This document shows, in pieces, positions 6,618 through 52,377 of a stretch of 64,000 bases of DNA. Source of the stretch: an uncultured Chloroflexia bacterium (GTDB taxonomy: Bacteria; Chloroflexota; Ktedonobacteria; Ktedonobacterales; Ktedonobacteraceae); contig CAVPEB010000014.1 of NCBI GenBank assembly GCA_963702765.1, positions 1-64,000 on the forward strand, given 5' to 3'. The translations under genes were made by a program, and so were the position numbers. The notes under the pieces are model-generated. The model was not told the origin of the DNA. It was given only the letters and a program-made list of their open reading frames with translations, and did no database searches. The stretch's first letter is position 1. Each line of letters starts with the position of its first letter.

Positions 6618-6680
6618 CTCATTTCATACACTTATCAATGGGAATGTTATTCTCGTATCTTAGAAGGTTTAGGCAAATGA

Positions 6681-7088: not shown

Positions 7089-7128
7089 ACATCTTTGTGT
7101 GCAGTTCCAGGAACTGCTTTTACCTTCT

Positions 7129-10100: not shown

Positions 10101-10196
10101 TCGCCGTAACTGCCAGAATGCTAATGTCGTAAAGGCTGGTATCAACAAACGATTCCTGTGCTTTTGCCGCGGCTGCCTTGCTCCAGACACATGCAC
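7129..10196 (-). pseudogene. FtsX/MacB-like ABC permease, copy 2, with at least 2 frameshifts (ORFs 7129..8286, 8135..9187, 9021..10196)
   Basis: Three successive overlapping ORFs in three frames, all homologous to the copy-1 permease. Confidence 0.7.
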
Positions 10197-10276
10197 CTCT
10201 TTTCATGCACTTATCAATGGAAATCTTATTCTCGTATCTTACAAGGTTTAGATACGTCGAGTAAAGGGATAACACC

Positions 10277-10324
10277 GAGATCCTTCGCTCGACGCTCAGG
10301 ATGACAAGACATGCGAAGGATCTC
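10277..10324. repeat. Dispersed repeat family A (GAGATCCTTCGCT..CTCAGGATGACA) as a stem-loop with 12-bp inverted arms (gagatccttcgc / gcgaaggatctc)
   Basis: Direct sequence; second copy at 10339..10368; relatives at 15362, 47835, 47907. Confidence 0.7.
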
Positions 10325-10338
10325 GTACCCAGTGTGTG

Positions 10339-10368
10339 AGATCCTTCGCTCGACGCTCAGGATGACAT
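10339..10368. repeat. Dispersed repeat family A copy
   Basis: gagatccttcgctcgacgctcaggatgaca, identical to 10277..10306. Confidence 0.7.
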
Positions 10369-10395
10369 TCGATTGACGATTCGTTTCTCTTCTTA

Positions 10396-10468
10396 TGAGT
10401 CAAACGCACAGGGCCACACCACATCCTACATCCACATCCACATCCCACATCCCACATCCCACATCCCA
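10396..10468. repeat. Microsatellite-like (CACATCC)n / (CCACAT)n tract
   Basis: catcctacatccacatccacatcccacatcccacatcccacatcccacatccacat. Confidence 0.8.
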
Positions 10469-10673
10469 CATCCACATAGTCCTTGCCCAAACAATTGGGA
10501 TATACAGTGATCCTCCAATGCAGTCGATATGACTTTATGATATATTGAATTTTAAGAAGCGAGGACAGGGGCAAGCCCAGTCTCCTATTATATACGAGCC
10601 TGGGAAGGCGACTCATCGTGTATAGTTGGGGCACTGGCTATCCTAATTCTTACGTTAACGTTTATGTATACAC

Positions 10674-10712
10674 CCCAGACCCTGGCAAAGGACTCCGTCC
10701 TCTGCACTCCTG
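10674..10712. repeat. Dispersed repeat family B (..CCCGGCAAAGGACTNCGTCCTCTGCACTCCT)
   Basis: Shares a core with 15791, 15881 and 29026; contains the GGACNNNGTCC palindrome. Confidence 0.65.
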
Positions 10713-10747
10713 ACTTTTTGATTTCCCTATGATAGGAGTATTATTAT

Positions 10748-11581
10748 ATGAGCGTTATACCGCGCTTGAACCGATTGCTTGCCAGTGATGGGCATTGTTT
10801 TGATGTTGCTATCGATCATGGTTTCTTCAATGAACGAGCCTTCCTGGACAATATTGAGGATATGAAACGTGTCGTCTCAACAATCATTGAAGCCAATCCC
10901 GATGCGGTTCAGCTAAGTCCCGGCCTGGCGCCATTGCTACAGGAGGTTCCTGGAAGAGCCAGGCCTTCACTCGTCTTACGCACCGATGTTGCGAATATTT
11001 ACGGCAAATCATTGCCCAGCTACTCGTTCAGCCGATTGATTGAGGATGCGGTAGAGCAGGCGCTTGCACTCGACGCGGCATGTGTTGTAGTAAACTTGTT
11101 TTTGATGCCCGATCAGCCCGAGCTACACGCCCAATGCATTGAGAATATTTGCCGCCTGAAACCGCAGTGCAACCGCTATGGCATGCCACTGATGATCGAG
11201 CCTCTCGTGATGCAAACGAACTCCAAAGGTGGAGGCTACATGGTTGATGGTGATCTCAACAAAATCCTTCCCCTGGTACGCCAGGCAGTTGAACTCGGCG
11301 CCGATATCATCAAAGCCGATCCATGCGATGATGTATCCCAGTATCACAAGGTGATCGAGATAGCTTCTGGCCGACCTGTGCTCGTGCGCGGTGGCGGCAA
11401 GACAACCGACGAAGAGATTGTGACACGCACCTACCAGCTTATGCGCCAGGGGGCAGCAGGGATCGTGTATGGACGAAATGTCATTCAACATCAGCACCCT
11501 GCCCAGATGACGCGTGCGCTCATGGCTCTTGTTCATGAAGAAGCGACCCCAGAACGAGCTCTCAAGCTTCTATATGGTTGA
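10748..11581 (+). CDS. Class I aldolase, DhnA/FbaB (DeoC-like TIM barrel) family
   Basis: 277-aa ORF with a class-I-aldolase-like TIM-barrel signature; AGGAG RBS upstream. Confidence 0.55.
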   Translation: MSVIPRLNRLLASDGHCFDVAIDHGFFNERAFLDNIEDMKRVVSTIIEANPDAVQLSPGLAPLLQEVPGRARPSLVLRTDVANIYGKSLPSYSFSRLIEDAVEQALALDAACVVVNLFLMPDQPELHAQCIENICRLKPQCNRYGMPLMIEPLVMQTNSKGGGYMVDGDLNKILPLVRQAVELGADIIKADPCDDVSQYHKVIEIASGRPVLVRGGGKTTDEEIVTRTYQLMRQGAAGIVYGRNVIQHQHPAQMTRALMALVHEEATPERALKLLYG

Positions 11582-11615
11582 AATCTGTGGTAATGCCCAA
11601 CTTTGTCATAAAGAA

Positions 11616-30178: not shown

Positions 30179-32557
30179 ATGATGGCCGTGAATCCAAGCG
30201 AAGAAGAGTCTATTGCGTTCTCGCATGTGACTGTTGAAGACCTATTGGCAGAGGTTAGCCAGTACTTGACTCCACATGATATGGAGACAATTCAACGTGC
30301 CTATTATGTTGCAAAACAGGCTCACCAGGGGACGGTGCGGCGCTCTGGAGAGCCATATATACAACATCCATTGGAAGTTGCGCTCTTACTAGCAGATATG
30401 CGCATAGATGCGGATAGCATAGTAGCAGCCTTGCTGCACGATGTGGTTGAAGATACTGACTTTGCCTTAGATGAATTACGGCAACAGTTTGGGGATGCGG
30501 TTGCAAACATTGTGGATGGAGTCACCAAATTCGACAGCCTGGCAGGAAATTCACTGGATCCGGCTCTTGAAATAGGGACACAAGGAGTGACTCGCCCACA
30601 GACTTTACCCTTATCGCTAGCAACGAATGCTGGAGGGCCTGGAGCTACACATACGCCTGAACAGGTGGAGCAAAAGCAACGCCTCGCGCGCGACATGAAA
30701 AAACGCCAGCGTTCAGAGACTGTGCGAAAAATGCTGCTGGCTATGGCCGAGGATCCACGCGTTGTAGTGCTCAAATTAGCAGACCGACTGCATAATATGC
30801 GCACTCTCAGTGTCATGAATCAGGCACAGCAACAAAACAAAGCTCGCGAGACACGAGAGATTTACGCGCCGCTTGCCAGGCGTCTGGGCATGGCATTGGT
30901 TCAGGCTGAATTGGAAGATCTGTCCTTTAGCTACCTGGAACCTGAAAAATATACCACTCTTGCTCGTGAAGTTGCAGAAGAGATACAAAAGCGCCAGCCT
31001 ACAATCGATAGAATTTGCCAGGCATTACAGGATGAGATGCAGAAAGCGGATATTCACGCGGAGATTCATCCCTGGCAGAAACACCTGGCCAGTATCAATC
31101 GTAAATTAGAGCAGAGTGGAGATGAACTCAGTCAGATACATGATCTTGTCTCTTATCGTATCCTGGTCGACACTATTCAAGATTGCTACCTGGCCCTGGG
31201 ACATATCCATGCATTATGGCGTCCTAAAGATGGAAGAATTAAAGATTTTATTGCTACACCCAAACTCAATGGATACCAGTCACTACATACGACAGTGTTT
31301 TGCCTGGACAATCAACTAGCGGAAATACAGATTCGCACGCATGAAATGCAGCGTATTGCTGATTATGGCATAGCCAGCTACTGGTATCTGAAAGAACGTG
31401 GCGCAGCGCGACTCTCAACTCGAGAAATGGTTGCGTGGATCGAACAACTACGTGAGTGGCAGCGTGAATTGCCACAAAATGCAGATGAGTTTGTGGAAGC
31501 TGTCAAAGGTGATATCTTTCAGGAGCAGATTTTTGTGTTTACGCCCAAGGGTGAAGTGAAAGATTTGCCACGAGGTTCGACGCCATTGGATATGGCATAT
31601 CGAATTCATACCGATATTGGCGATCATTGTGTGGGCGCACGCATTATTACTAACCTGGATGATGGGGGTCGCCTGGTAACCCGTATAGTACCCCTCGACT
31701 ATGAACTGAAAGGCGGCGAGATTGTAGATATCCTGGTGAGTGAAGAGGCACATCCGACACGCGATTGGCTTTCGTTTGCTCGTACAGCAACAGCTCGCAC
31801 AAAGATACGCCGCTACCTGAAAACATACGAGCGCGAGGTAAACCTGCAGTTGGGACGTGAACGTTTGGATCTGGCACTGAAAGCTGTTGGAGCATCGGGA
31901 TTACGTGTCGTGCATGATGAGGATCTCATTCACTTCAACTCACCAAAAAAATACAACTCTGTTGATGATCTGTATATAGCATTAGGTCGTCAGGATTTAG
32001 CGGTAGGAGAAGTACTCGAGTATCTCACACCGCTCATGCAAACGCGTGGCGAGATAAAGCCCGAGGCTGAACCAGCCGTAAATGGGCATTACCATAGTAG
32101 TGTTGGTGAATACGAGACGTCACAGGCATTTGTGAAATTGGCAAATTGTTGCTGTCCACTTCCAGGCGACCCAATTGTGGGTGTCTTGAATCCAAATAAA
32201 GGCATCATGGTGCATCGCAGTGATTGTCGAACGCTACGCCGTTACCGCGGACACGAGGCTGAACGTTTGATTGAGGTCAACTGGTTGCAAATTGAACCTC
32301 AGCACTACCTCACGCCAATCATCATCATTGCTCATGATCGGGCTGGTCTTTTACGCGATGTAGCCGCAGTCGTTGCTGATGCTGGCATCAATTTGACGGC
32401 AGTAGCCACAACGACTAATGCCTCATTGCAAAAAGCGGTAATTACAGCCACATTAGAGATTACATCGATCAATCAAATCGAGCCAATCTTCGAACGGTTG
32501 CAACAAATAAAGAATGTAGTAAGCGTTAGTCGCGATCTAGGCCGCAGAGCTGGATAG
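30179..32557 (+). CDS. rel: Bifunctional (p)ppGpp synthetase/hydrolase, RelA/SpoT (Rel) family, paralog 1 with intact HD and synthetase motifs
   Basis: HD domain (HPLEVA..LLHDVVEDT), synthetase (RIKDFIATPKLNGYQSLHTTV), TGS, ZFD (CCPLPGD) and ACT regions. Confidence 0.93.
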   Translation: MMAVNPSEEESIAFSHVTVEDLLAEVSQYLTPHDMETIQRAYYVAKQAHQGTVRRSGEPYIQHPLEVALLLADMRIDADSIVAALLHDVVEDTDFALDELRQQFGDAVANIVDGVTKFDSLAGNSLDPALEIGTQGVTRPQTLPLSLATNAGGPGATHTPEQVEQKQRLARDMKKRQRSETVRKMLLAMAEDPRVVVLKLADRLHNMRTLSVMNQAQQQNKARETREIYAPLARRLGMALVQAELEDLSFSYLEPEKYTTLAREVAEEIQKRQPTIDRICQALQDEMQKADIHAEIHPWQKHLASINRKLEQSGDELSQIHDLVSYRILVDTIQDCYLALGHIHALWRPKDGRIKDFIATPKLNGYQSLHTTVFCLDNQLAEIQIRTHEMQRIADYGIASYWYLKERGAARLSTREMVAWIEQLREWQRELPQNADEFVEAVKGDIFQEQIFVFTPKGEVKDLPRGSTPLDMAYRIHTDIGDHCVGARIITNLDDGGRLVTRIVPLDYELKGGEIVDILVSEEAHPTRDWLSFARTATARTKIRRYLKTYEREVNLQLGRERLDLALKAVGASGLRVVHDEDLIHFNSPKKYNSVDDLYIALGRQDLAVGEVLEYLTPLMQTRGEIKPEAEPAVNGHYHSSVGEYETSQAFVKLANCCCPLPGDPIVGVLNPNKGIMVHRSDCRTLRRYRGHEAERLIEVNWLQIEPQHYLTPIIIIAHDRAGLLRDVAAVVADAGINLTAVATTTNASLQKAVITATLEITSINQIEPIFERLQQIKNVVSVSRDLGRRAG

Positions 32558-32586
32558 ATGTTTATTCATTCTTTTTACATGATATA

Positions 32587-35046
32587 TTGGAAATTTTTAT
32601 GATAAATACGTCCTTACATACTCAATTTGCAGCGGATGACACGACAACAAAGCAGGCGCAACAGTTACTCGAAATTGTAGAGCAGTATATGCCTCCTGCT
32701 GATGTTGAGCAGGTTTCGAGAGCGCTTCAGCTTGCTCGCGAAACCTGCGAAGGTGTTCGAGGTGAGAGAGCTATTCCCCCATTAGAACACGCCCTGGCTA
32801 TAGCAACAATTCTAGCTCAAATCATGCATATAGACGCGGTTGGTGTGGCATCCGGCCTTATCTTCGAAGCTGTCGATTCCGATCTGCTTCCACTTGAGGA
32901 TGTTGAAACCAAGCTTGGAATTCCAGTTGCGCGTGTCGTGGGAAGTATGCTCCGCATGAACATACTAGAGCGCAAAAAGCGCGTTGGAGCTCAATTGATT
33001 ACTCCTGAGAAAGCTGGCGTGCCGAACGCAGGTGCAGGTGAGAACGAAAGTAACCGCGAACAGAAGAAGCAGCGAATACGCGAAGCGTTGCGGCGCCAGC
33101 AAGCTGAGACCGTCAGGAAAATGTTTTTCGCTATGTCAGAGGATCCCCGTGTCGTCTTGCTCAAACTGGCATATCGATTACATGCAATGCTGATGATATC
33201 AGCACATAGATCTTCCGCAAGCCAACAGGAAATGTTGACGATGGCCGAAGAGACGCGCGAAATTTATGCACCTCTGGCGGGACGACTGGGAATGTCGATT
33301 GTGGAAAGCCAGTTGGAAGACCTGGCATTTGAAATCCTTGAACCCGACAAGTACGAGTGGGTACGCAGCGAAGTGGAGGCAGAAAGCAAACAATGGCGAT
33401 CGTATGTAGATCGGGTCTGCGCCGTCTTAAGCGAAGAAATGCAGAAGCTTGGTTTGCATGCTGTGGTCTCCGGACGAGTGAAGCACCTGTACAGTTTTTA
33501 TAAGAAATTACAACGCAATGCTGGAGATGTTGAACGGTTGGAAGATCTGAAAGCTGCCGCCGATTTTAGTCAGATCCACGATATCATAGCGTTCCGTATT
33601 CTGGTAGATTCAACGCCTGAATGTTATGTCGCGCTTGGCCATGTGCATAGCCTGTGGAAGCCTAAAGATGGGCGTATCAAGGATTTTATCGCAAATCCTA
33701 AACCGAATGGCTACCAGGCATTGCATACGACGGTTTTTTGCCTGGATGATCAGCTTGTAGAAATTCAGATCCGCACTTTTGCTATGAACGAGATGGCGGA
33801 ACATGGTGTAGCGATGCACTGGCATTATAAGGATGTCGGGGACCGTGCTACAGCTTCTGCTAAAGAACTGCTCACATGGTTACGCCAGCTCACAGACTGG
33901 CAACGAGAATTACGGTCTGCTACCGCCAATGATACCGAATTTGTCGAAGCCGTCAGAGATGAAATTTTTCAGGAGCAGATTTTTGTGTTTACGCCGAAAG
34001 GCGAGGTCAAGGATTTGCCCGTTGGTTCGACTCCGCTTGATTTTGCGTATCGCATCCACACAAAAGTTGGAGACAAGTGTGCAGGAGCGCGTGTAATCAC
34101 CGAGAGTGGGAGCGGTGATAACGAGCGGCTTGTGACACGTATGGTTCCTCTGGACTACGAGTTGAAGAGTGGAGAGATTGTCGATATCGTCACGAGCCGC
34201 TCGGCTCATCCAACTCGGGACTGGCTGAATTTTGCCCGTACTGCGGCGGCAAAGAGCAAAATTCGGCGTTATCTCAAAATACATGAGCGAGATATCAATA
34301 TCCAGATTGGGCGAGAGCGGTTGGACCGCGAACTCAAAGTGATGGGCGTTCGTGGCGTCGACATGCTGACTGAAGATGCGCAAAACTGGTTGACCCATGA
34401 GTACCACAAAGAGTCATTTGAAGATGTGCTGGCCGCTATTGGGTGGGATGACATTCGACAGCATGGCGTTGCAGTGAAACTCGTCGATTTCTGGCAACAA
34501 CGCGAGCAGAGAGACGGCAAAGAGGTAAAAGAGGAAGAGGAACCACTTACTCTGCCTGGAATCAGCAAACAATTGCCCTCGGCTCATTTGCAGGTGGCAG
34601 GTGTCAGTGGATTGCTAACCAGCCTGGCGAACTGTTGTTGCCCTCTACCCGGAGATGAAATTGTGGGCTTCATTAGTCGCGGGAAGGGCGCGATTATTCA
34701 TCGTGCCGACTGTAAAAATATTGGCCGTTATCGCGAACGCGAACGCGAACGATTGGTGAACGTGAGCTGGACGACAATGGGCTACCAGCATTATCTTGCT
34801 CCTGTGCTGATTACCGCTCGCGATCGTTCAGGGTTGATTCGTGATATTGCAACGGTTGTCTCTGAAATTGGTGTCAACATGGCTTCTGTAAGCTCAAATG
34901 TCAGTCTGGGCAAGGAGACAGCTGTTATCAGCGCCACACTTGAGATCGATGGGTTGGAGCAGTTGCAGCGCGTGTTCACTCGACTTGAGAAGGTCAAAGG
35001 CGTCATGCATGTCGAGCGGGATCTAGGGAAGAGTAAAAAGCGATAA
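32587..35046 (+). CDS. RelA/SpoT-family paralog 2: degenerate HD hydrolase domain (HD replaced by FE) but intact synthetase; probably synthetase-only
   Basis: ..GLIFEAVDSD.. where paralog 1 has ..LLHDVVEDT..; the synthetase motif RIKDFIANPKPNGYQALHTTV is conserved. Confidence 0.88.
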   Translation: MEIFMINTSLHTQFAADDTTTKQAQQLLEIVEQYMPPADVEQVSRALQLARETCEGVRGERAIPPLEHALAIATILAQIMHIDAVGVASGLIFEAVDSDLLPLEDVETKLGIPVARVVGSMLRMNILERKKRVGAQLITPEKAGVPNAGAGENESNREQKKQRIREALRRQQAETVRKMFFAMSEDPRVVLLKLAYRLHAMLMISAHRSSASQQEMLTMAEETREIYAPLAGRLGMSIVESQLEDLAFEILEPDKYEWVRSEVEAESKQWRSYVDRVCAVLSEEMQKLGLHAVVSGRVKHLYSFYKKLQRNAGDVERLEDLKAAADFSQIHDIIAFRILVDSTPECYVALGHVHSLWKPKDGRIKDFIANPKPNGYQALHTTVFCLDDQLVEIQIRTFAMNEMAEHGVAMHWHYKDVGDRATASAKELLTWLRQLTDWQRELRSATANDTEFVEAVRDEIFQEQIFVFTPKGEVKDLPVGSTPLDFAYRIHTKVGDKCAGARVITESGSGDNERLVTRMVPLDYELKSGEIVDIVTSRSAHPTRDWLNFARTAAAKSKIRRYLKIHERDINIQIGRERLDRELKVMGVRGVDMLTEDAQNWLTHEYHKESFEDVLAAIGWDDIRQHGVAVKLVDFWQQREQRDGKEVKEEEEPLTLPGISKQLPSAHLQVAGVSGLLTSLANCCCPLPGDEIVGFISRGKGAIIHRADCKNIGRYRERERERLVNVSWTTMGYQHYLAPVLITARDRSGLIRDIATVVSEIGVNMASVSSNVSLGKETAVISATLEIDGLEQLQRVFTRLEKVKGVMHVERDLGKSKKR

Positions 35047-37863: not shown

Positions 37864-37960
37864 GGCACCAGGACAGCGCAAGCACCCCGACTTCTCACGT
37901 CCGCATATGTGAGGCACCAGGACAGCGCAAGCACCCCAACACCACATCCTCACAGCCCCT
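37864..37960. repeat. Two tandem copies of family C repeat (ggcaccaggacagcgcaagcacccc ...) in the intergenic region
   Basis: Direct sequence; copies at 37864-37888 and 37913-37937. Confidence 0.7.
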
Positions 37961-38043
37961 GTCCCTACATCTGGATGCCGACGGTGATACCATCGGAAAG
38001 CTATCACTTGACGTTGCAGGGTGTCTCCTCTAGAATAGCAGAC

Positions 38044-38493
38044 ATGGATATTTCTACGCAACTCTTACACGTCGCAATCAAACGCATTGATACAGACTTA
38101 CCGCTACCTACCTACGCTACAGCAGGTTCGGTTGGTTTTGATTTGATGTGTCGTGAAGAAACAGAGATTGCCCCACGAACGGTGGAGCTTATCCCCAGCA
38201 ATGTCATTGTAAAGATACCTGCTGGTTATATGCTGATGCTAACGTTGAGAAGTAGCACGCCGCTGAGAAAAGGGTTACTCATTCCAAACGGTGTCGGCAT
38301 CATCGACCAGGATTATTGCGGAGAGGGAGATGAGTTGAAGGTGCAGGTCTTTAATTTCCGAGAGGAAGCTGTGACGGTTACACGTGGAGAACGTATTGCC
38401 CAGGGGATCTTCATCCCTGTCATGAGTGTTCGATGGCATGAAGTCGATGAAATGGGTCAGGGGAGAGGTGGTTTCGGAAGTACGGGTATATAA
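38044..38493 (+). CDS. dut: dUTP diphosphatase
   Basis: Conserved dUTPase motifs (..AGSVGFDL.., ..GVGIIDQDY.., C-terminal GGFGSTG). Confidence 0.9.
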   Translation: MDISTQLLHVAIKRIDTDLPLPTYATAGSVGFDLMCREETEIAPRTVELIPSNVIVKIPAGYMLMLTLRSSTPLRKGLLIPNGVGIIDQDYCGEGDELKVQVFNFREEAVTVTRGERIAQGIFIPVMSVRWHEVDEMGQGRGGFGSTGI

Positions 38494-40243: not shown

Positions 40244-40903
40244 TCATCGCGCAGCCAATTCTCGCATAATAGCTCCAATCTGGCGGCGCGATCCAAACAT
40301 CCAGACGGTAAATTCATCGGTCAGATCTTCCACCTCGATCTGGCATTGCATTTCTTGAGCAAGTTTGCGTGCTATATGCAGGAACTGCCCGCGTTCGGCG
40401 CTGTCACGACTATAGGTATTCAATGCAATTCTGCCAAGGCGCTCTTCCTGACTCAAGACTGCATTGATAAGCACATGCAATTGATCCGTACCAAAGACAA
40501 CTTGCAATGGCGGGATTTCCTGGGCCTGGTCTGATAGGTATACAGCACCTTGCATGCTATCATTTTCTCGGCCATTCCCATTGTTAGAGTGTTCTTCGCT
40601 ATCGCCCACAATGGATGTATAGACGTCGCTCAATTTATCAAGAATCATGAGCCTTGCTTCTTCTGGCACGTCGTTGCGCGGGTACACATATGCAAGTAGC
40701 TTATGGGCTGAATCAGAGTAGATAAATGGGCGCGAGATAGCAGATCGCCTCCCGCAGGCGGGACACGAGGAAACATTCAACAGGCCAGCCAACACGGTGT
40801 ATTGCAACTGCGGGTCTGTCGAAACGTTGACGTATTCATAAATTTTGCTGTCAAACACCTCACCACAAGGGCAGGTGAGCGTGTGATTGGTTGAACGAGA
40901 CAT
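40244..40903 (-). CDS. CpXC-domain protein
   Basis: Two CPxCG motifs (TCPCGE.., SCPACGR..). Confidence 0.55.
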   Translation of the reverse strand: MSRSTNHTLTCPCGEVFDSKIYEYVNVSTDPQLQYTVLAGLLNVSSCPACGRRSAISRPFIYSDSAHKLLAYVYPRNDVPEEARLMILDKLSDVYTSIVGDSEEHSNNGNGRENDSMQGAVYLSDQAQEIPPLQVVFGTDQLHVLINAVLSQEERLGRIALNTYSRDSAERGQFLHIARKLAQEMQCQIEVEDLTDEFTVWMFGSRRQIGAIMRELAAR

Positions 40904-40920
40904 ACTACGTTTTCTCTAGG

Positions 40921-43900
40921 TTAGACGGTGACATATGAAAAGTGTTTCTGAGGAAAGTATATCATATGAGAATAGATGGCCAGAATCATAGACTGATCTT
41001 TGTCAGCACGATTATCCAGGCTACCCTGCAGCCTACCTCCCAGATCGTAGTAATGCAGGTCGCTGGAGTGGCTGCCGGTGGCGGTGTAGGTGTGCTCTTC
41101 GAGTCCGAAGGCGTAGACGGTCATGGTGGTACCACTACTGGTGGTGATCCGACGCAGCACACGGTTGCCCGAGGCGTCGTACACGTAGAGGTCTTTGTTA
41201 GCTGAGCCGGCATTCCAATTGACGAAGTGATCGAGCAGGTCGTAGGTCAGGGTCGCGGTGGTGCCGCTGTAGGTGCGGCTGGTGACGTTGCCCTAGTTGT
41301 AGTAACTGCTGGTAGATCTGCTAGGATTTGCTGGAACAGGTCGAGATGGTGGCATACATGTCGGTCAGTATATGAGGTATGCTGGTGCTGCTGCCACAGT
41401 AGAGATACTGTTACTGGGTGCTGCCTCCGTTGAGCGGCTCTTGCCACAGCTGCCAGAGATGCGTATAGACAAAGGTGTTGCTGTAGTTGGCTACACTTAA
41501 GCTGTTGGAGAGGGTGGAGCTGACACAGGTGTAGTTGATTGCTCCTGGCTGGGTGCCTGAGTTGCCTGCTTACACCAGACGGTTCTGTTAGTCGTAGCAG
41601 AAGTTCTGGCTCTCACTCTCTCCTGAGCTGCTTTTGCCTGGCACGGCAGCCTGGGTGGTCGCGAGGTTGGTGACGTTGCTGGCAGGGTCATAGGCCAGGG
41701 TTTGCGCAAAGACGGCGCCACTGGTGCCACTGCCGCTTTGCCAGGTGGCGCTGGCGCTCGTAGGACGCAGGTTGGCGTAGTAGCGTACTGCTAGGAGGCC
41801 AGCGGGTTGCTCAGCGAGGTCTGGAAGTTGATGGTATATAGTTGGGCGCGGGCATTGTAGACCAGGGTGGCCAGGTTGGCAGATGTGGCATTGGCCTGGT
41901 TACTAGTAAGGTGGGAGTGCTAGTCGTGGTGTCATAGATCTGGGTGGTGGTGTACTCTTGCTCGCTGGGAGTGGTACTGGTGGCGGTGGTGGTCAGCTGG
42001 TCAGCGTCGTTGTATGTAGTACTGTGCTAGGTAGCTGGGTAAGCTGGTGGTGATGCCACAACTACTAGGGAGGGTGCAGAATTGCATCTGTTCGGCTGAG
42101 AGCCTGCCACGGGCGTCGTGTTCGAAACGACTCGGTCGTGGTGACAGTATCACACCGGGAGTGCCTGTGAGATAGGTTTTGGAGAGGCTCTGGGTAAACT
42201 CTCCTTTGGGGTAGTTGGTGGTGACTGAGACGGTCAGCTTGTTGGTATCATAGGTGTTTTGCACGTAGATGTTGCCTGCGCTACAGGCACTGGTAGCGTT
42301 GATGGTGGGCGTGGCGTACTGCACGCAGCTCACGCGTCCTAACAGGTCGTAGTTGTAGCTGATGAGATGTTTGTTTGATCAGACGGTCGCATCGTCGGTG
42401 AGGACGTTACCGTTGGGATAGAGGGTGTAATTGTGCGTGCCGCGATCAGGATAGACGACTGCGTGAGCCGTCCCAGGTAGTCGTACTGCGCGGTGGTGGT
42501 GACACTGGTGATGGTCTGGCCTGTTTGGGGCGCTTTATCATAGACTTTGACGGAAGTGGGTTCGTTGAGCACGTTGTATTGCATGGTCTTTTGTTCGTTG
42601 AGTGTGAGGGTGCCTCCATAGAGACCACTATCGAACTGCTGGTAGACGCTACGACCAGGGCATAGTTGAAGCTGATACTGACGTGTTTGTTGGGGTAGAC
42701 GCTGGTCACGCTGGCATAGGTATAATTGTTGGGATCGCTTGCAACGGTGCCGGTGGAGTAATTGGTGCAGGCGGTATACGTGCCAGTCAGGGTGGCGGAA
42801 CAGGCGATGCTAGGCTCCTGGCTGGATACAAAGAGGGGGTACTGTGCTGCAATGGCTCTGCCTAAGGCGTCGAAGAAGGTGACGATACCGCCTGGTGCGA
42901 CGCCTTGATAGTCTTTGACGCCATTGGGGTACACTCAGCCGCTGCCATGGGTCACTTCAAAGGGCACGCTCTGCCAGACGGAGTGCGCCTGGTAGTTGTA
43001 GGTGGTGATCACTAACGTGTAGTAGCTAGAGCTCGGTCCCGGCGTGCGCGTCTCTGATGGCTCTGCTCAGGCTGTCGTAAAAAGGTGCTGGACTGCACAG
43101 TGCTGTACAGGTACGATTTACTATCGGCTTCATAGCAGGGCAGGGTGCTGCTGTTGGTACAGCTGGAGTTGGTCTTGGACAGAGTGGTGTAGCCGCTGAT
43201 ATGCAGGGGCAGTTTGAGCTGCACGGCCGGATGCTGCTGGAGTCATAGGTATAGCTGGTGCTGGTGGTCTGGCTGTTGACATCGGTGGTGCTGGTAGGCA
43301 GAAGACCTCTGCGTGTAGTCATAGCTGGTACTGGTGGAACAGGTCAGGGCATTGGTCATAGTTGTTGGTTGGGCGTTGTAGCTATAGTAGGATGTGCAGG
43401 TTGTGTAGTGGCTCTGGCTATAGGCGCTGCTATAATAATGTACGGGGCAGTGGAGAGCGTGTAGCTGTTGCTTGCGTACAGTGAGCTGTTCGCAGCAGCC
43501 AGCGACATAGACGCTGGCGACGGCATTGCTATAGGCGTCATAGCTCTGGTAGCTGGTGGTGAGAACGGCACCACGCGTTGGAGTGCAGGCGCTGTTGCTG
43601 TAGGTCTTGACGGTGGTGGGCAGGCTTTTCTGAGGGGGTCAGTGTCCCCGAGGGTGCTCCTTGTCGTAGGTGCTATCCTGGCACTGCCAGATATGACTAG
43701 TGTTATCGGTGCTATCGCTGTGCGTCACGTTGTTGATGGAGTAGTAAGTCCACTCTCCTGACGTTGTCTGGTAGTTGAACGTATATGCTCAGTTTTTATT
43801 GAGCGGGTAGATATTCGTAGGGAGGTTAGAGCCGCTGACCTGGTCTTGCTGGAGCACGTGGTACCCGCCACTGGCTACAAGCTCATATTAGAGGGAATAA

Positions 43901-46575
43901 TAGTCGTAGGTATAGGTGTGTTGGACTATGGGAGCGCTGCTACTGTTGCTGCTCTCGTAATAAATGGCCTGGGTGTAGACAACGACCTGCTCGCAGGCGG
44001 GATAGGTGATGGTGGTGCTGCGGCACGCATTAGAGTTTGTTGCATAATAGGTATTGGTGCGAGTGAGCAGGGTAGTGGGGGTAAAGCTAGTGCCGCTGTA
44101 GACCTCCTCGCGCCACAGCATGCCGCAGGAAGTTCTGATAATCGGACATGGGCGTCCGCCAGCTCTCGGTACTGTAGTAGTAATACACGGTCAGGTCATT
44201 GGCTGGGCTGACTGTACAGACCTGCGAAAAGCTCTGGTACTAGGCATGGTAATAGTCTTCTCAATACGTATCACTAGCAGGTAACTAGTTGTCACTCACG
44301 CAATCCTTATCAACTTGGTTTTGATAGGGGTAACAAAAGATATTCTCGATATAGGTCTCTGTTTTCGATAGGCGGTAGTAACTGAAGGTGGTTTTGGCGG
44401 GCTGCAAGGAGGAGGAACTGCTATAGGTGCAGAGAGCGGTGATGCTGGTGACTACCTGCTAAGCTAAGGTATGATCATCAGGATGAGAGTAGTGGACTGT
44501 GCAGGTGCTGTTGTTGGTGCAGAAGAGCGCGTAGTAAGGGTCATAGAAGATGGTATTCTTATTTATGATGGTGGGAGTGATATGGGTATTGTTATAGGCT
44601 CTGGCATAGGTGATGGTTACACTCACTTCGGTATTGCGATCTTGGTAGAAGTTCAGGTAATCTCAGCTAGTCTGCGTGCTGTAGGACTGCGAGCTGACCG
44701 TTTGTGTACTGTCGTAGTACGTGTCTGTGAGCAAAGATGTGTAGCTAAACTGGACACTGTGCAGCGTATGACCTGTCTGGTTCTGATAGATGGTGGGGGT
44801 GACGCTGTGAGCAGGTGTTCAGGCGCAATACTGCTGCGCGAGGGTCAGGGGATCGGTGCAGGCGGAAAATGGGCTGTCCGCAAAGGGCGGGTTCGCAGTG
44901 TAGGCGAAGGCATAGCTGCTATCCTCGTAACTCGGCGTGTGCGTCGATGCGACGTAGCTGGTCACACTATCAGGGTGAGCGTACTCATGACGAGGGGTGC
45001 TCTCGCTGCTATCATCTAATGGGTATCACAGCGCAAGGTCGTCGAGGTCGGGGAGCACTTCGCAGTCGTAGTTATTCCATAGGCGCACCAGCACAGAGCG
45101 GGATGAGTCGCTACTGGTGGAGGAGATCGTACTCGGACTATGATAGAGATAGTCGACGATGACAGACACATCGGTGACCGAACCAGTGGTGCCTTGACCA
45201 TAGCCGTAGATGATCTGCTAGAGAGAGGTATCGCGGATGTTGGTATAGCTACAGTGGGGGTGTTCTAGTCTAGCACATAAGTGAATAGAATTATCTAGTA
45301 GTAGGTACTATTGGAGATTTAAATAGGAGATAAGATATAGTAGATGTATAAGAGATATTTGATGAGAGAGATGATATTATAGGTATAATATTGTAGAGAG
45401 TAGATGATAAAGATAAGTTAGTAGTAGGTGTTAGATTTGTATAAAAAGTGAAAGAAAGGATATTTGTTGAAGATAATTTGATAGATTTTAAAGTAGGAGA
45501 TATGTTAGATATAGTAAGAGTTGTATGTGAATGTAATGAGATGATAGATGATATAGGAGATGTTGTTGAGAAAGTAATAGGTGTTATTTGAATTGATTGA
45601 ATAAATTTATGAGATGATGGAAATAAAGTTGAGAGATAAGTTATATATTTAGTAGATTGAGAGTGAGATGAAGTTATGAAGTTAATTGGGTAAGATGATG
45701 GAATAGGTGAGAGTTAGATGAGAGATAAAATTTATGATGATGAGAGGAATTGTAAGAGATAGAGTGCTGCTATGAGGAGTTGTGCAAGAGAGAGAGGCAG
45801 TTCAGCAAAGCTGATTGAAATTTTTGTTTGAAGTGATAAATGAGTTGGTGTTGAGTAATATGTTATGGGTGTTAAGGGTATGAGTTATTGGGTATATGTA
45901 TGGGAATGTTGAGTTTGGTGTTGGGTTGTTTGGTTTGTAGGGTGCAGAATGAGGGTGGGTTAGTTTAGGATTACGTTATTAGGGTTAAGGTTTAGATATG
46001 TTAGTTAGGAGGGTTGGTAGTGATAGATGGTGGTCATAGGTGTATGTAAGGTTAGTTTGTTGATGATGTTGTTTTGGTTGTGGATGAGTTGTAGTTGTTA
46101 GTGTTAAGTAGGTTATTCTGGTTGGTGGAATGTTTATAAATTGGATGAGATGTACGCTTAGCGCGTTTACAGGCGCGCTGCTACTTGGTGGTATGTGAGA
46201 GATAAGAGATATTAGCTGGATATGTACTTCGAGGCGGATATGCTGTTGTGAGATCAAGGGCTGATGCTGTAGCGCTGTCTGCGAGAAAGGCCGAAGTCAA
46301 CGTAGAGGTGATGGGTGCATGCTGGCAGGTTCGGCACTCGGGGGCAGGGTGTAAAATAGGCATACTGCGAGACCCTTGCCCGGAGGTGGCGCCAGTGGAT
46401 GGAAAGGTGACGGGACCACGATAGGTGTGTCCTGACGGCCCTCCGAGAAATGATCGAAGGTCATGGTGGCAGGTGCGCTCGTCAGGGGGTCAGCCGCGTG
46501 ACTGGTGAACACGCCGGTACTCCAGCCTGCGATGACGCCTGAGAGGACGACGATCAGCAACAGGGCTGAGAGCAA
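40921..46575 (-). pseudogene. RHS/YD-repeat family protein gene (~1.8 kaa) with signal peptide, heavily decayed: dozens of in-frame stops, and no toxin-like C-terminus
   Basis: Minus-strand fragments carry YD-repeat motifs (MYDASGNRV..YAFGLEEHTY..YYDLGGRL; YDYLGRLTQ; EHDARGRLSAEQ); an N-terminal signal-peptide ORF at 46297..46575; the longest intact ORF is ~160 aa. Confidence 0.7.
45290..46145. other. ~860-bp stretch with essentially no C on the plus strand (no G on the minus strand), inside the decayed RHS gene, with sharp boundaries
   Basis: By eye fewer than ~10 C in ~860 nt, against ~25-33% C in neighbouring DNA; A/G/T-only, AT-enriched. Confidence 0.8.
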
Positions 46576-47033
46576 CAGGTGCCGAGTGTGAGGCGGCGGG
46601 ATGTCTGAAACGGAAAACGAATATGAGGACGAGGGCGAGGAGAGCGTGAACCGGGATCAGCAGACAGCATGGGACATACTCCATCTCTTCCAAAGGAAGC
46701 ATCTCAAAAAGAGCAAGTAAAGGATACAATTATCATAGTGAGATAGGTAATGGAAATAAATATGATTGATATATTGTGGAGCAAATTTTAATGGGAAAAT
46801 AATGATATATAAGTGAATAGGAGAAAAGTCATAATGGAATAAAAATTGATATATAATGTATTGTATAAATATTATTAGAAATATATCAATACAAGCTAGA
46901 TAATTCAAATAAATGCATATAAGTCCCTCGCGAAATATGCTATACTCAGCGAGGAAATTTCATCGACCCAACGACGCGTGTGAAGCTATTTTCGCATCTT
47001 CTTGATAAATAGGATTTGCAGGAGGGGATTTCG

Positions 47034-47777
47034 ATGGCCCGTGACGCAACAAATATGCCTTTTGAACGATCCACATCCTACAGGAATGACGACTCAAACG
47101 AACAAACAAATGGCACCGATCGACCATTTGATACATCGCTCAAGATAGAGAATATGCTCCTCGAAGAGTTCAACTACGCGAGTGTGACGGCATATCAAGC
47201 CATGGAGGATCGAGCGCGTATCTCCAGTTTCTATTACATCCTGCTCGGAGTTCTGGTGTCCGGTCTGGCAGCGGTGTATCAATTCAGCGGGGGCACGCGC
47301 ACTATTCCACAGGCCTTAGTCGCTCTATTGCTTTTCATTGGCGCTTTCATCAGCATCTGCTTTTTCGTTACTCTCATTCGCCTGAGACAGGCATATAAAG
47401 AGAGCCTTCTCACCATGAATGTGATCAAAGAGTACTATATAGATCAATTTAAACAGCAGATGCCGACGATTGAAAAGGCCTTCCGCTGGCGGCTTACAAC
47501 AATGCCTAAGGGCGAACGTATCGGCAGTGTCACTTTTATGATTGCTACCCTGAATGCTTTTATTGGCAGTCTCTGTCTTGCTGGAGCAGTGTTCTTCATT
47601 ACTGAGCAAACGCTTTCTAATACATGGGCATCCATCGTGGCGGGAGCAGTATTCATCTTAGCCGTGTCTGCGCATATTTACTACTATCGTTATTCTCTCA
47701 GCAAGGAAAATGATACAAAAACCATAAATGAGCAGGTAGAGGTTTTGGAGACTGCATTCAATAAGGGTGATGAATAG
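47034..47777 (+). CDS. Hypothetical integral membrane protein (4-5 TM)
   Basis: AGGAGGGG RBS 7 nt upstream of ATG; hydrophobic helices; no family recognised. Confidence 0.4.
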   Translation: MARDATNMPFERSTSYRNDDSNEQTNGTDRPFDTSLKIENMLLEEFNYASVTAYQAMEDRARISSFYYILLGVLVSGLAAVYQFSGGTRTIPQALVALLLFIGAFISICFFVTLIRLRQAYKESLLTMNVIKEYYIDQFKQQMPTIEKAFRWRLTTMPKGERIGSVTFMIATLNAFIGSLCLAGAVFFITEQTLSNTWASIVAGAVFILAVSAHIYYYRYSLSKENDTKTINEQVEVLETAFNKGDE

Positions 47778-47980: not shown

Positions 47981-49255
47981 TCATCTTCTTCTACTTTTGC
48001 TAACCGATTTGGTTGAGAAGGTGAATTTTAGTCCCTGTCTCTCCATAAAAGTCTGGAACAGGCCGTAAAACTCGGCTCGATCTTGCATGGTAATTACGGC
48101 TACTGCATCGGCAGCTTCAATGGCATAGGGATAGCCCTGTCCAGCAATGACTTCAGCACGGACTGCGTCAAGGACAGGTTCGAGTATTCCGTCATCCAGC
48201 ATCCAGCGGGGGAACTCCAGGCGGGCAGGCGGGCGCGTTGAGGTTGTTTGCACATAACAGAACGCTACTTGCTCACGATAGGATCCATAACCTTCCAGTA
48301 TGTCGCCACGAGCGCAGATCATGGCGGGCGTGCGATCTCCCCAACGCAGTTGACCCTGCCATAATAACGCGTCATGGATATTTTTTGTTTCGCGCAGTAC
48401 AGGCTGGCGCTCTATAGAATCCAGGCGGCGAAGCATGGTAATCATGTCGCGTGCATAGCTTGTGTCTATGTAACCGATGAGCGGCACGCGTTGTTGCTCG
48501 GAGGTTTGTAAGAGCGAGATGGCGGAAGCAATATAACGTTCCCTGTAGGGACTGGGCATCGTCAAAGCGAATGAAACGACGAGGGAACCATCGAAAAAGA
48601 CTATAGGGCTGTGGGAGGGATCACCCTCACGGCGCTGCTGACCATGCTGTTCCATCTGATTGCAAAGTGTCTCTACTTCTAACATGTAGCGGCGAAGCGT
48701 CACCTGCATTTCGGAATAGGGATAGCTATCGGGGTCTTTATTCTCGGTGAGAGACTCTTCCATGATTTCATCAGGGGAAAGCACCTCCAAGCGAACATCT
48801 TTTGTGTACGGACGCCCCTGAGCATGGGGATTGGCAAACAGGCCGACCTGGATCAACGCCACTGGAATAGAGGCATCACGCCAGGGCTGTAGCTGGCTGC
48901 CATCGACGGCAATTGTGGTTATGCCTTCTATACATTCGGCCCATTGGCGAGATTGTTCGTGGTTCTCAAACTCAATGCCAAAGGGAAATTTTGGGGCATG
49001 ATAATTGCCTTGCGCGGCATGAACCAGCCAGCGGTCGTATTCCATAGTGGGGCGCGCACCCGCTGATGGCGCACCAGTAGTGTCGGGTGGGAGCCGGTTG
49101 TCTAATGCCGTGCTTGAAGCATAGCAATTGTACAACGTTTCGAGAGCGTGACGATATGCTTGCAATTGATCGATAAATGAAGCATCGAAAGCGTTGAATT
49201 GGCCGCGTTTAAGGTTTAAAGCAGCCTGAAGTTTGCCTTTATGAAGCATGCACAC
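47981..49255 (-). CDS. NurA-like 5'-3' nuclease domain protein (tentative), overlapping and downstream of the SbcC-like ATPase gene
   Basis: Two DGS motifs in the spacing typical of NurA (..IAVDGSQLQ.. and ..IVFFDGSLVV..); start overlaps the upstream ATPase gene by 17 nt. Confidence 0.4.
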   Translation of the reverse strand: MCMLHKGKLQAALNLKRGQFNAFDASFIDQLQAYRHALETLYNCYASSTALDNRLPPDTTGAPSAGARPTMEYDRWLVHAAQGNYHAPKFPFGIEFENHEQSRQWAECIEGITTIAVDGSQLQPWRDASIPVALIQVGLFANPHAQGRPYTKDVRLEVLSPDEIMEESLTENKDPDSYPYSEMQVTLRRYMLEVETLCNQMEQHGQQRREGDPSHSPIVFFDGSLVVSFALTMPSPYRERYIASAISLLQTSEQQRVPLIGYIDTSYARDMITMLRRLDSIERQPVLRETKNIHDALLWQGQLRWGDRTPAMICARGDILEGYGSYREQVAFCYVQTTSTRPPARLEFPRWMLDDGILEPVLDAVRAEVIAGQGYPYAIEAADAVAVITMQDRAEFYGLFQTFMERQGLKFTFSTKSVSKSRRR

Positions 49256-52200
49256 GTTCCTGTTCTTCCACTATCATTCCATCGTCCTCGGTTATGATAG
49301 AGGTTTTGTTATCCAATTTACGCAGTCGGATGATGCTATCAAGCCCTTGCTCAAAGGTATCGTCGTGGCTGATGACAAACAATTGATCGAAGCCACGCAC
49401 GCGTCGGATTTGCTCCGCCAGGTTGGTGCGGCGGAGTTCATCCATATTTTGAGTCGGCTCGTCAAAGAAGGCGATATTCAACGTAGAGAGCTTCTTAAGC
49501 AGGGCGAGGCGTACCGACAGTGCCGCGCTCATCTGCTCACCTCCACTCAATTGTGCAAAGGTGCGGTCGACTCCCTGGCGATGCAGGATGATTTCGTAAT
49601 CATTTTGCCAGGAAAGTTGGGCGCTGCGATCACCCATGATCTCGCCAAAGATGCGATTGGCTTCAATTGAGATATCATTCATCATTGCTTTCAATACATG
49701 TGGGGCAGCTTCTTTGATCAATTTGCGGAACTGCTCCAACATTTTGTATAGCTCTTCAAGCGTGCTTTTTTCCTTTTCAGCTACTTTCAGCTCTTCTAGC
49801 AGTAGTTCGGCGAGTTCTATCCTTTGCTCGAGGTTGTTGATTTCTGCCTGTAGTTTTTGCATTTCCGCGGCTAACCCGGCTAATTCACCCGTGAGCCTGT
49901 TGATTTCAAGTTCCAACTCGACAAGTTCCTGTTCGTTGAATATATCCCGCGCTTCCTGGTATGCCCGTTCGGCAGCGTAGCAAGGCCTGTTTTGCTTGCT
50001 CAGCTTTTTGAAGCGCCCGATTGTACATTTGCGTGCGCTCGGGGAGCATCTTCGCGGTATCTATATTTTTAAGATAGGTCGAGTAGCTTGCTCCACAATC
50101 TTGTTGAATAGATTCCTGCTGGACAATTTGCACATCGAGATCAGCGTAGCGGTTCAAGTGCTGTTCCAATTGTGCTAGCTGCTCTTCTATCTCTTGAGCT
50201 TTTCGCTGTTCAGCTTGCATTTGTTGCTGATAGGTAGATTCTTTCTGAATGGTATCCTGTTGTGTCTTACTTAGCGAGCGAGGATCATTGAGCACTTGTA
50301 ATTTCTGATTGACGTCTTTCAGTTCATCTCCGCTTTTAGATAGCTCGTCAGCCTGTTGTTGACGCTGCAACAAATCGATTCCAGACTGCTCAATCTGTGT
50401 TTGCAAATGCTGCATTTGTGTCCGGAAACCTTCAAGTTCGCGAACCCTCTGATCTGCTTTTTCGCTTTCATCGCGCTCAGATCTGGCCTGGACTATTTGC
50501 TGATCGAGATTTTTCAGCTCCTCAAGATCCAGCCCTAAATCCGATATTTCACGTTCCAGACGAGTAATATCTTGTGTCACTGCTTTTAGACGCTCAACTT
50601 GAGCATCACGGCTCTCAATATACTGCCCCAGTTTATTCAATCCATCTGCAAATTTTCCAACAAATGAAATGCGGTCGTTCACGGCAGTTAGTTGCAAGCT
50701 GAGACTAGCAAATTGTTTCCGCTCTTGAGCGAGTTTCCCATCAAAGTAGGATTCCAGGCTAACAATGCCATCCTGTTTGATATTCAAGCATGGCTGATGT
50801 AGTAATGGACACTGACCACCCGCGGAAAGCTTTCGCGACCTTACAAAGCCTTCAATATTCCCCTCAAGACGGTGTTGTTGCGCAGAGAGTTGCTCGTGCT
50901 GAATTTGTAAAGTTGTTAGCTCTTCAGCTTCCTGACGGTGTTCTTCAATTTTAGTGATCACATCATCGGCTTTACGCAGGTAGTTTGTGATTTTCTCGCG
51001 ATCAGCATTCTTCTCTTGTAATTGCTTGCGTTTTTCCTCAAATTGCAACCGCTTTGTACTTCGTTCGCTTGTTCTAGATTGTAGATGAGCTAACCTCTCG
51101 ACACGTGCTGTCAGGAGTCCTGCCACATTTTGCAGTGGTTCAATCACGTCTATTCGTTGCTTGATATCTCTCTGCTGCTGCAAGAATTTTGCTCCCTGTT
51201 GCTGCATGCGCTGTATTTCCTTGAGCAGCCTTTCATATTCATTAACCTGAAGAGTAAGGATATCCCTTCTCTTTTCTAATTGATGCTGCTGTTCTACAAG
51301 CGGCAATAACTCCACCAGTCGTTGATGGGCAGCAGCTACATCCTGGAGCCTTCCGCTCAGGTTCTCAATATTCGCCCGGTGCGTTGCTAGGGTTGTTTGC
51401 AATTTTGAGTGTTGTTGCCGCAATGTATTGCGTTGCTGTTCATCTGCGCGGAGGCGTTTTAAAGACTGCGTTGCCTGCAAGTAGCGTTCGTAATCAGCCT
51501 GACTCTCTTGTATAGCTTGGCTGGCTATACGAGCTTCACTCACTTGATTCTGTCTGTCCATAAGCATTTCTTGAGAGGTTGTATGAATTGTTCTTTTTTG
51601 ATGGAGTTGCGATTGGCACTCATTGAGGTGATCACGCTGTTGTTTCAGCAATTCAGCGCGTTCTTTGCATACCGTCAACCGCCGGGCGCTTTGCGCATTT
51701 TGTTCTTTTTTCTGCTGGTCTTCCAGGCGTGAACTTTTCAGGCTTGCCCGCCACTCATCCAGGTCGCGCGTTTCAATTTCAAGGCGTTGGATTTCACTTT
51801 TTTGTGTTTGAATCTGCTCCTGATATACTTTCGAGGTATCTAACAGGTAATCTGCAGCAGTTTTGTAGTCTTCGATTTGGAGCAGAGCATCGAATGTCTG
51901 CTTGCGTTTACTGGCAGTTTCGAGAAAAATAGAGGTAAAGGTTCCTTGAGGTACACCTAACGCATCACGGAAAAGCACATCGAGTGGCCGCTCGCGATCG
52001 ATGCCAAATAGCTCGTGGAGCTTATCCAGCACATCGGTGCGTTGTTCGACGCGCAGGTCTGCTTCGCGATCAAATACGACCCATTTCGCGCCTGTTCCGC
52101 AACGCCGTTCGACTTCGTAGGGACGATCATCACCGCCAATGAGATGGACAACGACACGCCCGTATTTTTCGCCTTCGCGCACAAATTGCGACTGGTTATA

Positions 52201-52377
52201 GGAGAGATGGTCGAAGAGCGCAAATCCAATGGATTCGACGATGGTTGTTTTACCGGAACCATTTGGACCATGGATAGCAGTCGTGCCTCGTCGAAAATCT
52301 ACAGAGACATTACGATAACTTTTGATATTCTCTAATTCGATGCATGTAATGAGCATAATGATGCGCCTTCCCAACAA
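49239..52377 (-). CDS. SbcC/Rad50-like SMC-family ATPase (~1040 aa) with long coiled coil; frameshift near 49906-49916 splits it into 823-aa and 225-aa ORFs
   Basis: N-terminal Walker A GPNGSGKTT; C-terminal signature LSGGEQMSAALSVRLAL; Walker B/D-loop FFDEPTQNMD; H-loop ISHD; central Cys pair CPLLHQPC as a possible hook. Confidence 0.8.

Follow-up and report, generated by a model that had tools for sequence, protein, structure and literature searches.

We analysed 64,000 nt of DNA from an uncultured Chloroflexia bacterium (positions 1 to 64,000 of contig CAVPEB010000014.1, hereafter the window). It comes from the core chromosome of a bacterium in the family Ktedonobacteraceae and has genes for FtsQ/A/Z, cytochrome oxidase assembly, Rad50/NurA, a sigma-70 factor, RelA/SpoT and TGT. 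Our subject is the remnant of an RHS (YD-repeat) gene that lies on the minus strand between a membrane-protein gene and a CpXC gene (Table 1). The initial annotation of this DNA, which was made from the sequence alone, had placed a ruined RHS gene at 40921-45290 and attributed its state to directional, transition-biased hypermutation. All coordinates are positions in the 64-kb window; the coding strand of the RHS gene is the minus strand, and a loss of coding-strand G is a loss of plus-strand C.

The remnant is colinear with a nearly intact homologue, L001, which is a metagenome contig of Ktedonobacteria type. In blastn comparisons, window positions 46651 to 41024 matched L001 positions 6286-11940 end to end with 77.9% identity over 5720 nt, and positions 44035 to 41015 matched a second homologue, L002 (9895-12895), with 86.5% identity. 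The L001 RHS gene shows about three frame changes and no in-frame stops and retains its C-terminal toxin region. The L001 copy spans 6286-13099, and the L002 copy is 5'-truncated (9895-14088) and broken before a PT-HINT module. A protein search with the read-through translation of the remnant returned 89 matches (best E = 5e-297), most of which have PF05593 or PF25023 on record; the source of some entries calls them 'RHS repeat-associated' or 'YD repeat-containing'. Nothing matched when the RHS remnant itself was scanned with Pfam, and the intact protein P0001 gave only a sub-threshold RHS_repeat match. By homology, we assign the remnant to the YD-repeat shell / RHS polymorphic toxin family.

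The YD motifs quoted in the initial annotation (YDASGNRV, YYDLGGRL and YDYLGRLTQ) are present on the minus strand, and its statement that no minus-strand open reading frame (ORF) in 40921-45290 exceeds about 160 aa agrees with our scan, in which the longest was 162 aa; the plus strand has a spurious ORF of 182 aa. Fixed reading frames across 40900-46750 contain 49-69 stops per 1950 codons. Aligned to L001, the remnant has stop triplets in place of 28 sense codons (17 within 40921-45290) and 51 indel events, 42 of which are frameshifting. RHS homology ends after YYDLGGRL at ~41010-41024, with no core end (DPxGL-type motif) or toxin domain, as had also been noted. L001 extends ~1.1 kb further; the remnant lacks the final ~100 core codons and the toxin that are found there. 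The stretch 41024-46651 is a dead, 3'-truncated RHS toxin gene. The range first given for it is too narrow, as the gene reaches ~46651; left out were the 5' 1.4 kb and, with them, the most extreme feature of the locus, a G-free core at 45300-46160 that lies directly upstream of 40921-45290.

Table 1. Features of the RHS remnant and its surroundings (positions in the window).
Feature	Position	Strand	Remarks
RHS/YD-repeat gene remnant	41024..46651	-	colinear with near-intact homologue L001; many stops and frameshifts; lacks core end and toxin
Upstream patch (zone U), AT-rich, G-depleted	46700..46880	-	comparison with ortholog L095; plus-strand C 4-6%
Untouched 5' gene end (N-terminal basic and transmembrane segment)	46260..46699	-	private window changes balanced
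Zone A, nearly every G replaced, almost solely by A	45830..46259	-	residue-level alignment to L001
G-retaining island	45767..45829	-	~45 nt not colinear with L001
Zone B, coding strand without G (plus strand without C)	45309..45766	-	458-nt run, run-length scan
Diffuse zone, A, T or a deletion in place of ~20% of ancestral G; approximately the region of the initial annotation	41300..45308	-	
Old RHS relic and junction adjoining CpXC gene, not hypermutated	40974..41299	-	common to several relatives
Segment missing from the spacer of the closest relative, L092	40974..46901	-	holds RHS remnant and upstream region
Membrane-protein gene flanking spacer	47016-47777	+	
CpXC gene flanking spacer	40244-40903	-	

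Across the core (45300-46160) the coding strand contains 1.6% G, compared with 24% in the homologous part of L001, and the plus strand is nearly devoid of C across 45271-46160. The longest C-free run on the plus strand, which makes up zone B, is followed by further runs of 133, 82 and 60 nt. Outside the RHS locus, the longest run in the window that lacks any one base is 65 nt. No comparable base-free run was found in 106 related loci (~1.3 Mb), where the longest is at most 54 nt; a scan of 91 RHS-bearing or related loci (1.1 Mb) found no run of at least 70 nt without a base, and loci added later gave at most 52 nt. Outside G, the core agrees with L001 at ~73-97% of positions, counted in 150-nt bins (83% for the saturated zone B bins), and contains few indels. 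An Rfam scan of the tract gave no matches at E <= 1.

The residue-level comparison resolves the remnant and its upstream region into zones of unequal intensity. Of the L001 guanines aligned to zone A, 67 have become A, 16 T and 5 C, and 16 are still G; the zone's edge at 46161-46259 is partially affected, and saturation holds from 46160 down. Over 46259-46003, where changes can be polarised by L001 together with the orthologous locus L095, the window-private changes comprise 31 G-to-A, 6 G-to-T, 4 G-to-C and 7 of all other kinds, and L095 has 11 private changes, which are balanced. In 45300-45829, the L001 guanines changed to T at 63 positions, to A at 48 and to C at 13, and L001 C was replaced by T at 48 of 180 sites (27%). 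The upstream patch, which the composition scan located as a C-poor plus-strand stretch at 46711-46910, has lost 16 of 26 G relative to L095 (7 to A, 4 to T, 2 to C and 3 by deletion), against changes at 17 of 156 non-G sites. Within 46401-46550 none of 37 G is lost. The far end of the gene is likewise unaffected: there is no G excess in the last 300 nt of the remnant, and window-private changes in 40974-41299, scored against L093, L095, L099, L103, L001 and L002, fall at 4 of 51 G, 2 of 53 A, 4 of 49 C and 5 of 37 T, again with no excess at G. Loss of G is thus saturated in two tracts of ~0.35 and 0.46 kb, reaches ~60% in the 0.2-kb upstream patch and ~20% over 4 kb downstream, and is absent from the 0.44-kb stretch between.

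The minus strand at 45290-45740 holds a stop-free stretch of 150 codons in a frame other than the original one. It is open because, without G, TAA is the only possible stop codon, and no ATG, GTG or TTG start is possible. Selection for an open frame in the tract was rejected, since the original frame has many stops and the lack of G accounts for the open stretch.

The plus strand of the region first annotated is C-poor, as had been stated (C is 8-29% per 100 nt). The coding-strand skew, (C-G)/(C+G), is 0.27 in that region and 0.90 in the core. It is 0.16-0.17 over the homologous parts of L001 and L002 (0.16-0.18 for the coding strands of L001 6286-13099 and L002 9895-14088), and 0.04-0.08 in RHS genes that are less closely related. 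L001 and L002 share about 60% of the skew in the region; most of it is therefore inherited, so that the earlier attribution of the whole compositional skew to hypermutation does not hold. To separate inherited composition from recent change, we aligned the window with L001 and L002 over 41000-44060 and counted the changes private to each lineage. The window lineage has 227 private changes, which fall at 124 of 614 G (20%) and at 3.4% of A, 6.3% of C and 6.6% of T. The 129 private changes of the L002 lineage fall at 5.2% of G, 4.3% of A, 6.4% of C and 4.6% of T, and the 316 of the L001 lineage at 11.7%, 8.3%, 13.5% and 15.7%, respectively. The excess at G in the window is strong (124 of 614 G, compared with 103 of 1903 A, C and T sites; Fisher p = 7e-25), and in this polarised alignment neither the L001 nor the L002 lineage shows one. 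The ancestral guanines had changed to A at 64 sites, to T at 47 and to C at 13. Private indels are also more numerous in the window (17, against 6-7 in L001 and L002), and eight of its nine small internal deletions remove a G (p = 9e-5). Mutated G sites in the diffuse zone are mildly clustered (runs test p = 0.01).

The decay is directional and guanine-specific on the coding strand; it is not transition-specific. The directional part of the initial proposal is upheld by these counts, and the transition bias is not, as G-to-T changes nearly equal G-to-A changes, G is also preferentially deleted and frameshifts are abundant. The spectrum is far from unbiased, nor can the reading frame be mended by a few indels. 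The stops tell the same mixed story: of the 17 in 40921-45290, about nine can be derived from single transitions, as originally suggested (seven from TGG and two from CAR), and about five arose by G-to-T transversion of GAR, GGG or GAC. At the protein level, relative to L001, the change of Asp to Tyr is seen 37 times compared with 8 for Asp to Asn, with 30 changes of Gly to Ser, 10 of Glu to stop and 8 of Trp to stop.

The strongest determinant of what a mutated G became is its 3' neighbour, which is the template base that a polymerase building the plus strand copies directly before the G. Among the polarised changes of the diffuse zone, GA became TA 28 times and AA only twice, while G before G became A 36 times and T 7 times (GA versus GG contrast, p = 2e-10). 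The neighbour also influences whether a G is mutated at all, with 31% of G before a purine changed compared with 11% before a pyrimidine (p = 2e-9). On the 5' side, AGN almost never changed to T and a 5' T has no effect on G-to-A change, which favours a 3' G. The A and T outcomes are interspersed along the diffuse zone (runs test p = 0.44) and therefore look like the product of one process.

To place the mutagenesis in time, we compared the spacer between the two flanking genes (40904-47015) in loci L003, L004 and L092-L106. The flanks of the closest relative, L092, align to window positions 52000-46902 and 40973-30234 and lie 29 nt apart. Its content differs between loci: L092 and L004 have almost nothing there, L103-L105 an IS110 transposase, L096, L098, L101 and L102 a RelA/SpoT-like gene with one further gene, L099 a WD40 gene and L093 orphan RHS modules. 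A short RHS relic adjoining the CpXC gene is common to many of these loci. With this variable cargo, the spacer is an insertion hot spot in the relatives. Locus L095, which comes from a different sample, has the same left junction, AT-rich upstream region and RHS 5' end as window positions 46901-46003, followed by an internal deletion, and its copy of the 5' end shows no hypermutation. Both genes that flank the spacer in the window are balanced in their change spectrum, and the 97 window-private changes over 10.7 kb of flank are symmetric (22 G-to-A, 27 C-to-T and 2 G-to-T). Because the L095 ortholog is unmutated and the flanks are unaffected, the mutagenesis, in one or more events, took place in situ and within this lineage. 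Judged by these comparisons, it affects only the dead gene, and there a single base on a single strand. Two other candidates were rejected on the same grounds: hypermutation before or during insertion of foreign DNA (damaged and taken up) is at odds with the unmutated junction and 5' end in L095, and a lineage-wide mutator or general strand bias is at odds with the symmetry of the flank changes.

Between the two saturated zones, 26 nt of the G-retaining island (45794-45819) are identical to positions 9901-9926 in the L092 spacer and have no other occurrence in the window or in 98 loci; they include a small hairpin, TCAGC-TTT-GCTGA. The match suggests that L092 arose by two deletions that spared the island alone; a surviving piece would fall there with a chance of ~1%. 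Protection of the island by its hairpin was considered and rejected, as DNA folding of the window and of the L001 equivalent gave z-scores near 0. A double-strand break at the island with two-sided resection was rejected by reasoning, for it predicts opposite polarities, yet both zones lose plus-strand C.

The mechanism that we prefer, to which we give somewhat less than an even chance, is a patchy, error-prone resynthesis of the plus strand that was unable to place C opposite G. The plus strand would have been remade in patches on the minus-strand template by a low-fidelity, unproofread polymerase that put no C opposite template G, whether from dCTP starvation or because the guanines were unreadable. 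Insertion of T would give G-to-A, insertion of A would give G-to-T and skipping of the base would give a G deletion, with the choice set mainly by the last nucleotide added: after T, A would be inserted (GA to TA) and after C, T (GG to AG). In zone B, A would also have been misinserted opposite about a quarter of template C, giving C-to-T. The mutant strand would then segregate at the next replication and would survive because the DNA was already a pseudogene. The dependence on the 3' neighbour favours such resynthesis because this neighbour sets the primer terminus, and so does zone B, where G-to-T and C-to-T both amount to A inserted in the plus strand. We also count for it the sharp edges of the tracts, the G-specific, strand-coordinated spectrum with near-total loss of G in the core and deletion of G, and the unmutated L095 copy and balanced flanks, with no general mutator.

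There is background for such a process in biased deoxynucleoside triphosphate (dNTP) pools, which cause G-to-A hypermutation by reverse transcriptase in vitro; hypermutagenesis of this type has been described in vitro and in viral genomes. The resemblance is that a lack of dCTP forces misinsertion at template G, with strand-specific G-to-A change, and would explain the dependence on the previously inserted nucleotide. We know of no natural chromosomal tract ascribed to biased dNTP pools. Defences that deplete nucleotides exist in bacteria, according to the accessible part of one report (10.1101/2021.04.26.441389). Several points weigh against resynthesis. The tract is a single instance, with no other base-free tract in ~1.3 Mb of related loci, and no polymerase, reverse transcriptase or dCTP-depleting gene was found in the 64 kb. 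To our knowledge, there is no precedent for extending more than 100 consecutive forced mismatches in vivo while escaping mismatch repair. The threefold higher mutability of G before purine than before pyrimidine is a plus-strand 5'-YC preference (Y, pyrimidine), which is equally expected of a cytosine deaminase, and a deaminase is the simpler account of zone A taken alone, with its pure G-to-A in every context. Nor does resynthesis account for the effect of the 5' neighbour (the rarity of AGN changes to T).

A close rival, which we regard as possible though rather unlikely, is cytosine deamination of exposed single-stranded plus-strand DNA by a host deaminase, by a deaminase toxin delivered by a competitor or by chemical means. 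Uracil copied directly would give G-to-A, and uracil excision followed by abasic bypass would give G-to-A, G-to-T and G deletions. The context-independent ~100% G-to-A of zone A, the strand coordination of changes over 5.6 kb and the higher mutability at plus-strand 5'-YC all agree with this route. So does the GG-to-AG footprint, which is of APOBEC3G type, and abasic sites are expected to give single-base deletions and mixed insertions. A suitable activity is described in the accessible parts of two reports, where SsdA is a bacterial single-stranded DNA deaminase that acts on C after any base (PMC7901873; PMC12494967). The context rule is the main difficulty: GA went to TA rather than AA by 28:2, though deamination predicts GA to AA, and bypass of abasic sites in a plus-strand template should be governed by the neighbour on the other side. 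To obtain the coding-strand C-to-T changes of zone B (27%), the opposite strand would have to be attacked as well, and an R-loop with the gene's own mRNA would leave the wrong strand exposed. Deaminase-type products (C-to-T only, or with C-to-G after uracil excision) fit in zone A but not elsewhere, where G-to-T makes up ~40%, and a Pfam scan of the window ORFs detected no AID/APOBEC-type or other deaminase gene in the 64 kb. Lesions on the other strand of the same base pair, that is, guanine-directed oxidation, alkylation or enzymatic modification of a single-stranded or unrepaired coding strand that was then miscopied, seem to us distinctly unlikely. They would place all effects at G, deletions included, and would accord with the preference for G before a purine, as oxidation is easiest at the 5' G of GG and GA; G-to-T is moreover the classic outcome of 8-oxoguanine and of abasic sites at G. 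On the other side, we know of no guanine lesion that gives both the clean 100% G-to-A of zone A and GA-to-TA, chemistry would hardly alter each G across 0.9 kb and spare A, C and T, and the C-to-T changes of zone B are unexplained.

A programmed or targeted process, either editing of a duplicated toxin gene akin to fungal repeat-induced point mutation (RIP) or RNA-templated conversion by complementary DNA (cDNA) from a reverse transcriptase that misreads G, repeated until G was gone, is in our judgement very improbable. Its appeal lies in the restriction of the effect to the RHS remnant, with both flanking genes untouched, in the several separate tracts of unequal intensity, which suggest repeated hits on the locus, and in the multi-copy nature of RHS genes in these genomes; the mutated strand is also the one that first-strand cDNA of the gene's mRNA would replace. 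Against these stand the absence of a second example among the 91 RHS-bearing or related loci and the ordinary spectra of the close homologues L001 and L002, which come from other samples. The window has no reverse transcriptase among its 44 ORFs of at least 150 aa (Pfam scan) and no template/variable repeat pair, as a repeat search of the tract and window returned trivial tandem repeats only, and the transitions-only outcome and CpA preference of RIP are not seen here. That the tract is a sequencing or assembly artefact is quite improbable, although the allele comes from a single assembly, exact look-ups of two neighbouring proteins and a protein search with ORFs of the G-free tract found no sibling, the best match in a genome scan was 87% identical, other genes in the window are split (Rad50 and an FtsX-type permease) and related ENA contigs look like long-read assemblies with frameshifts. 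An artefact would have to leave A, C and T faithfully read, for the non-G positions of the core are ~73-97% identical to L001 with almost no indels in the saturated stretches, and it would have to obey a strict sequence-context rule. Independently assembled loci from other samples (L092, L095, L099 and L103) again show the island sequence and the two junctions, and no platform error known to us strips one base from one strand in a two-strand consensus. Ordinary neutral decay of an old pseudogene with a skew inherited in the family is excluded for the core and extremely improbable as an explanation of the whole. It could draw on the ~60% of the skew that close homologues share and on an unremarkable indel:substitution ratio of ~1:13, yet the spectrum is fourfold G-specific, in contrast to the balanced ones of L001, L002 and the flanks, a 458-nt run lacks one base altogether, deletions are G-specific and a 440-nt stretch inside the same pseudogene is untouched.

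The footprint shares features with several known mutagenic systems. Retroviral G-to-A hypermutation by APOBEC3/AID enzymes and kataegis in tumours and yeast are likewise strand-coordinated and clustered, affect one base of the G:C pair and span kilobases; the GG-to-AG change is that of APOBEC3G, and the mutated strand corresponds to the antisense, first-strand-cDNA strand. Here, by contrast, the target is a bacterial chromosome, a density of ~100% over 0.9 kb is far above that of kataegis, GA goes to TA rather than AA, ~40% of events are G-to-T and deletions are G-specific. Bacterial DNA deaminase toxins such as DddA and SsdA/BaDTF2, often carried on polymorphic toxins, are a context-independent source of C-to-U change on single-stranded DNA in what is accessible of the two reports (PMC7901873; PMC12494967). 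In the accessible part of the former, their action is reported as mutagenesis of surviving target-cell populations and not as a local, saturated natural tract (PMC7901873). Such toxins would also give transitions only, and the RHS remnant here lacks a toxin domain of its own. Fungal RIP resembles the present case in that dense G:C-to-A:T changes destroy a repeated or dispensable gene and spare its flanks, with one polarity per strand per event and an AT-rich product, but it gives C-to-T only, prefers CpA and is tied to the sexual cycle, whereas transversions and deletions are frequent here and the context is G before a purine. Diversity-generating retroelements also mutagenise one template base specifically and repeatedly; they differ in targeting A, in requiring a reverse transcriptase with template and variable repeats, in acting on regions of ~100 nt and in keeping the ORF open, none of which is seen here. 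Finally, RHS remnants and orphan modules are known as truncated RHS cores beside a variable region, and a related strain has orphan modules at the same site (L093), but ordinary remnants decay without a base- or strand-specific spectrum, as in L002.

One-strand, one-base mutation storms are familiar from retroviruses, fungi and tumours. We found no report of one-strand, one-base saturating mutagenesis in a bacterial chromosome in full-text literature searches, and the footprint, although a single case, is striking and apparently unreported for a bacterial chromosome. Provided that the tract is real, it records such mutagenesis in nature and indicates that bacterial DNA can survive the rewriting of about a quarter of the bases of a tract at once, which bears on the inactivation of pseudogenes, mobile DNA and toxin genes. 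Its signature (GA to TA, GG to AG, G deletion and sharp edges) offers a fingerprint for finding the responsible enzyme or condition and for scanning other genomes. We consider it unlikely, on this one locus, that the group has a local hypermutation process, enzymatic or polymerase-based, that acts on one strand and one base, is able to strip one strand of a gene of all its G and is possibly targeted to silenced, duplicated or foreign DNA; if it did, prokaryotes would have their own counterpart of RIP or APOBEC editing, with GA to TA, GG to AG and G deletion as its signature. For annotation and compositional methods the locus is a caution, as a G-free, AT-rich block can be a mutated relic and not foreign DNA.

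Several neighbouring genes deserve mention in their own right. A dUTPase gene (37909-38493) lies 2.5 kb downstream of the remnant, and genes for NurA and Rad50, which act in DNA-end resection, lie directly upstream (47981-52377). Their nearness is probably coincidental because they occupy the same positions in relatives without the remnant. Rad50/SbcC is split into two overlapping ORFs (49239-49916 and 49906-52377), while relatives have a single gene of 1038 aa; the split is either a real frameshift or a consensus error. At 7129-10196, three overlapping ORFs, two of them with FtsX-type permease domains, lie beside an intact 832-aa paralogue (4119-6617) and are probably one gene broken by frameshifts. 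Two adjacent long genes of the RelA/SpoT family occupy 30179-35046, and a third, shorter member occurs in the hot-spot cargo of some relatives.

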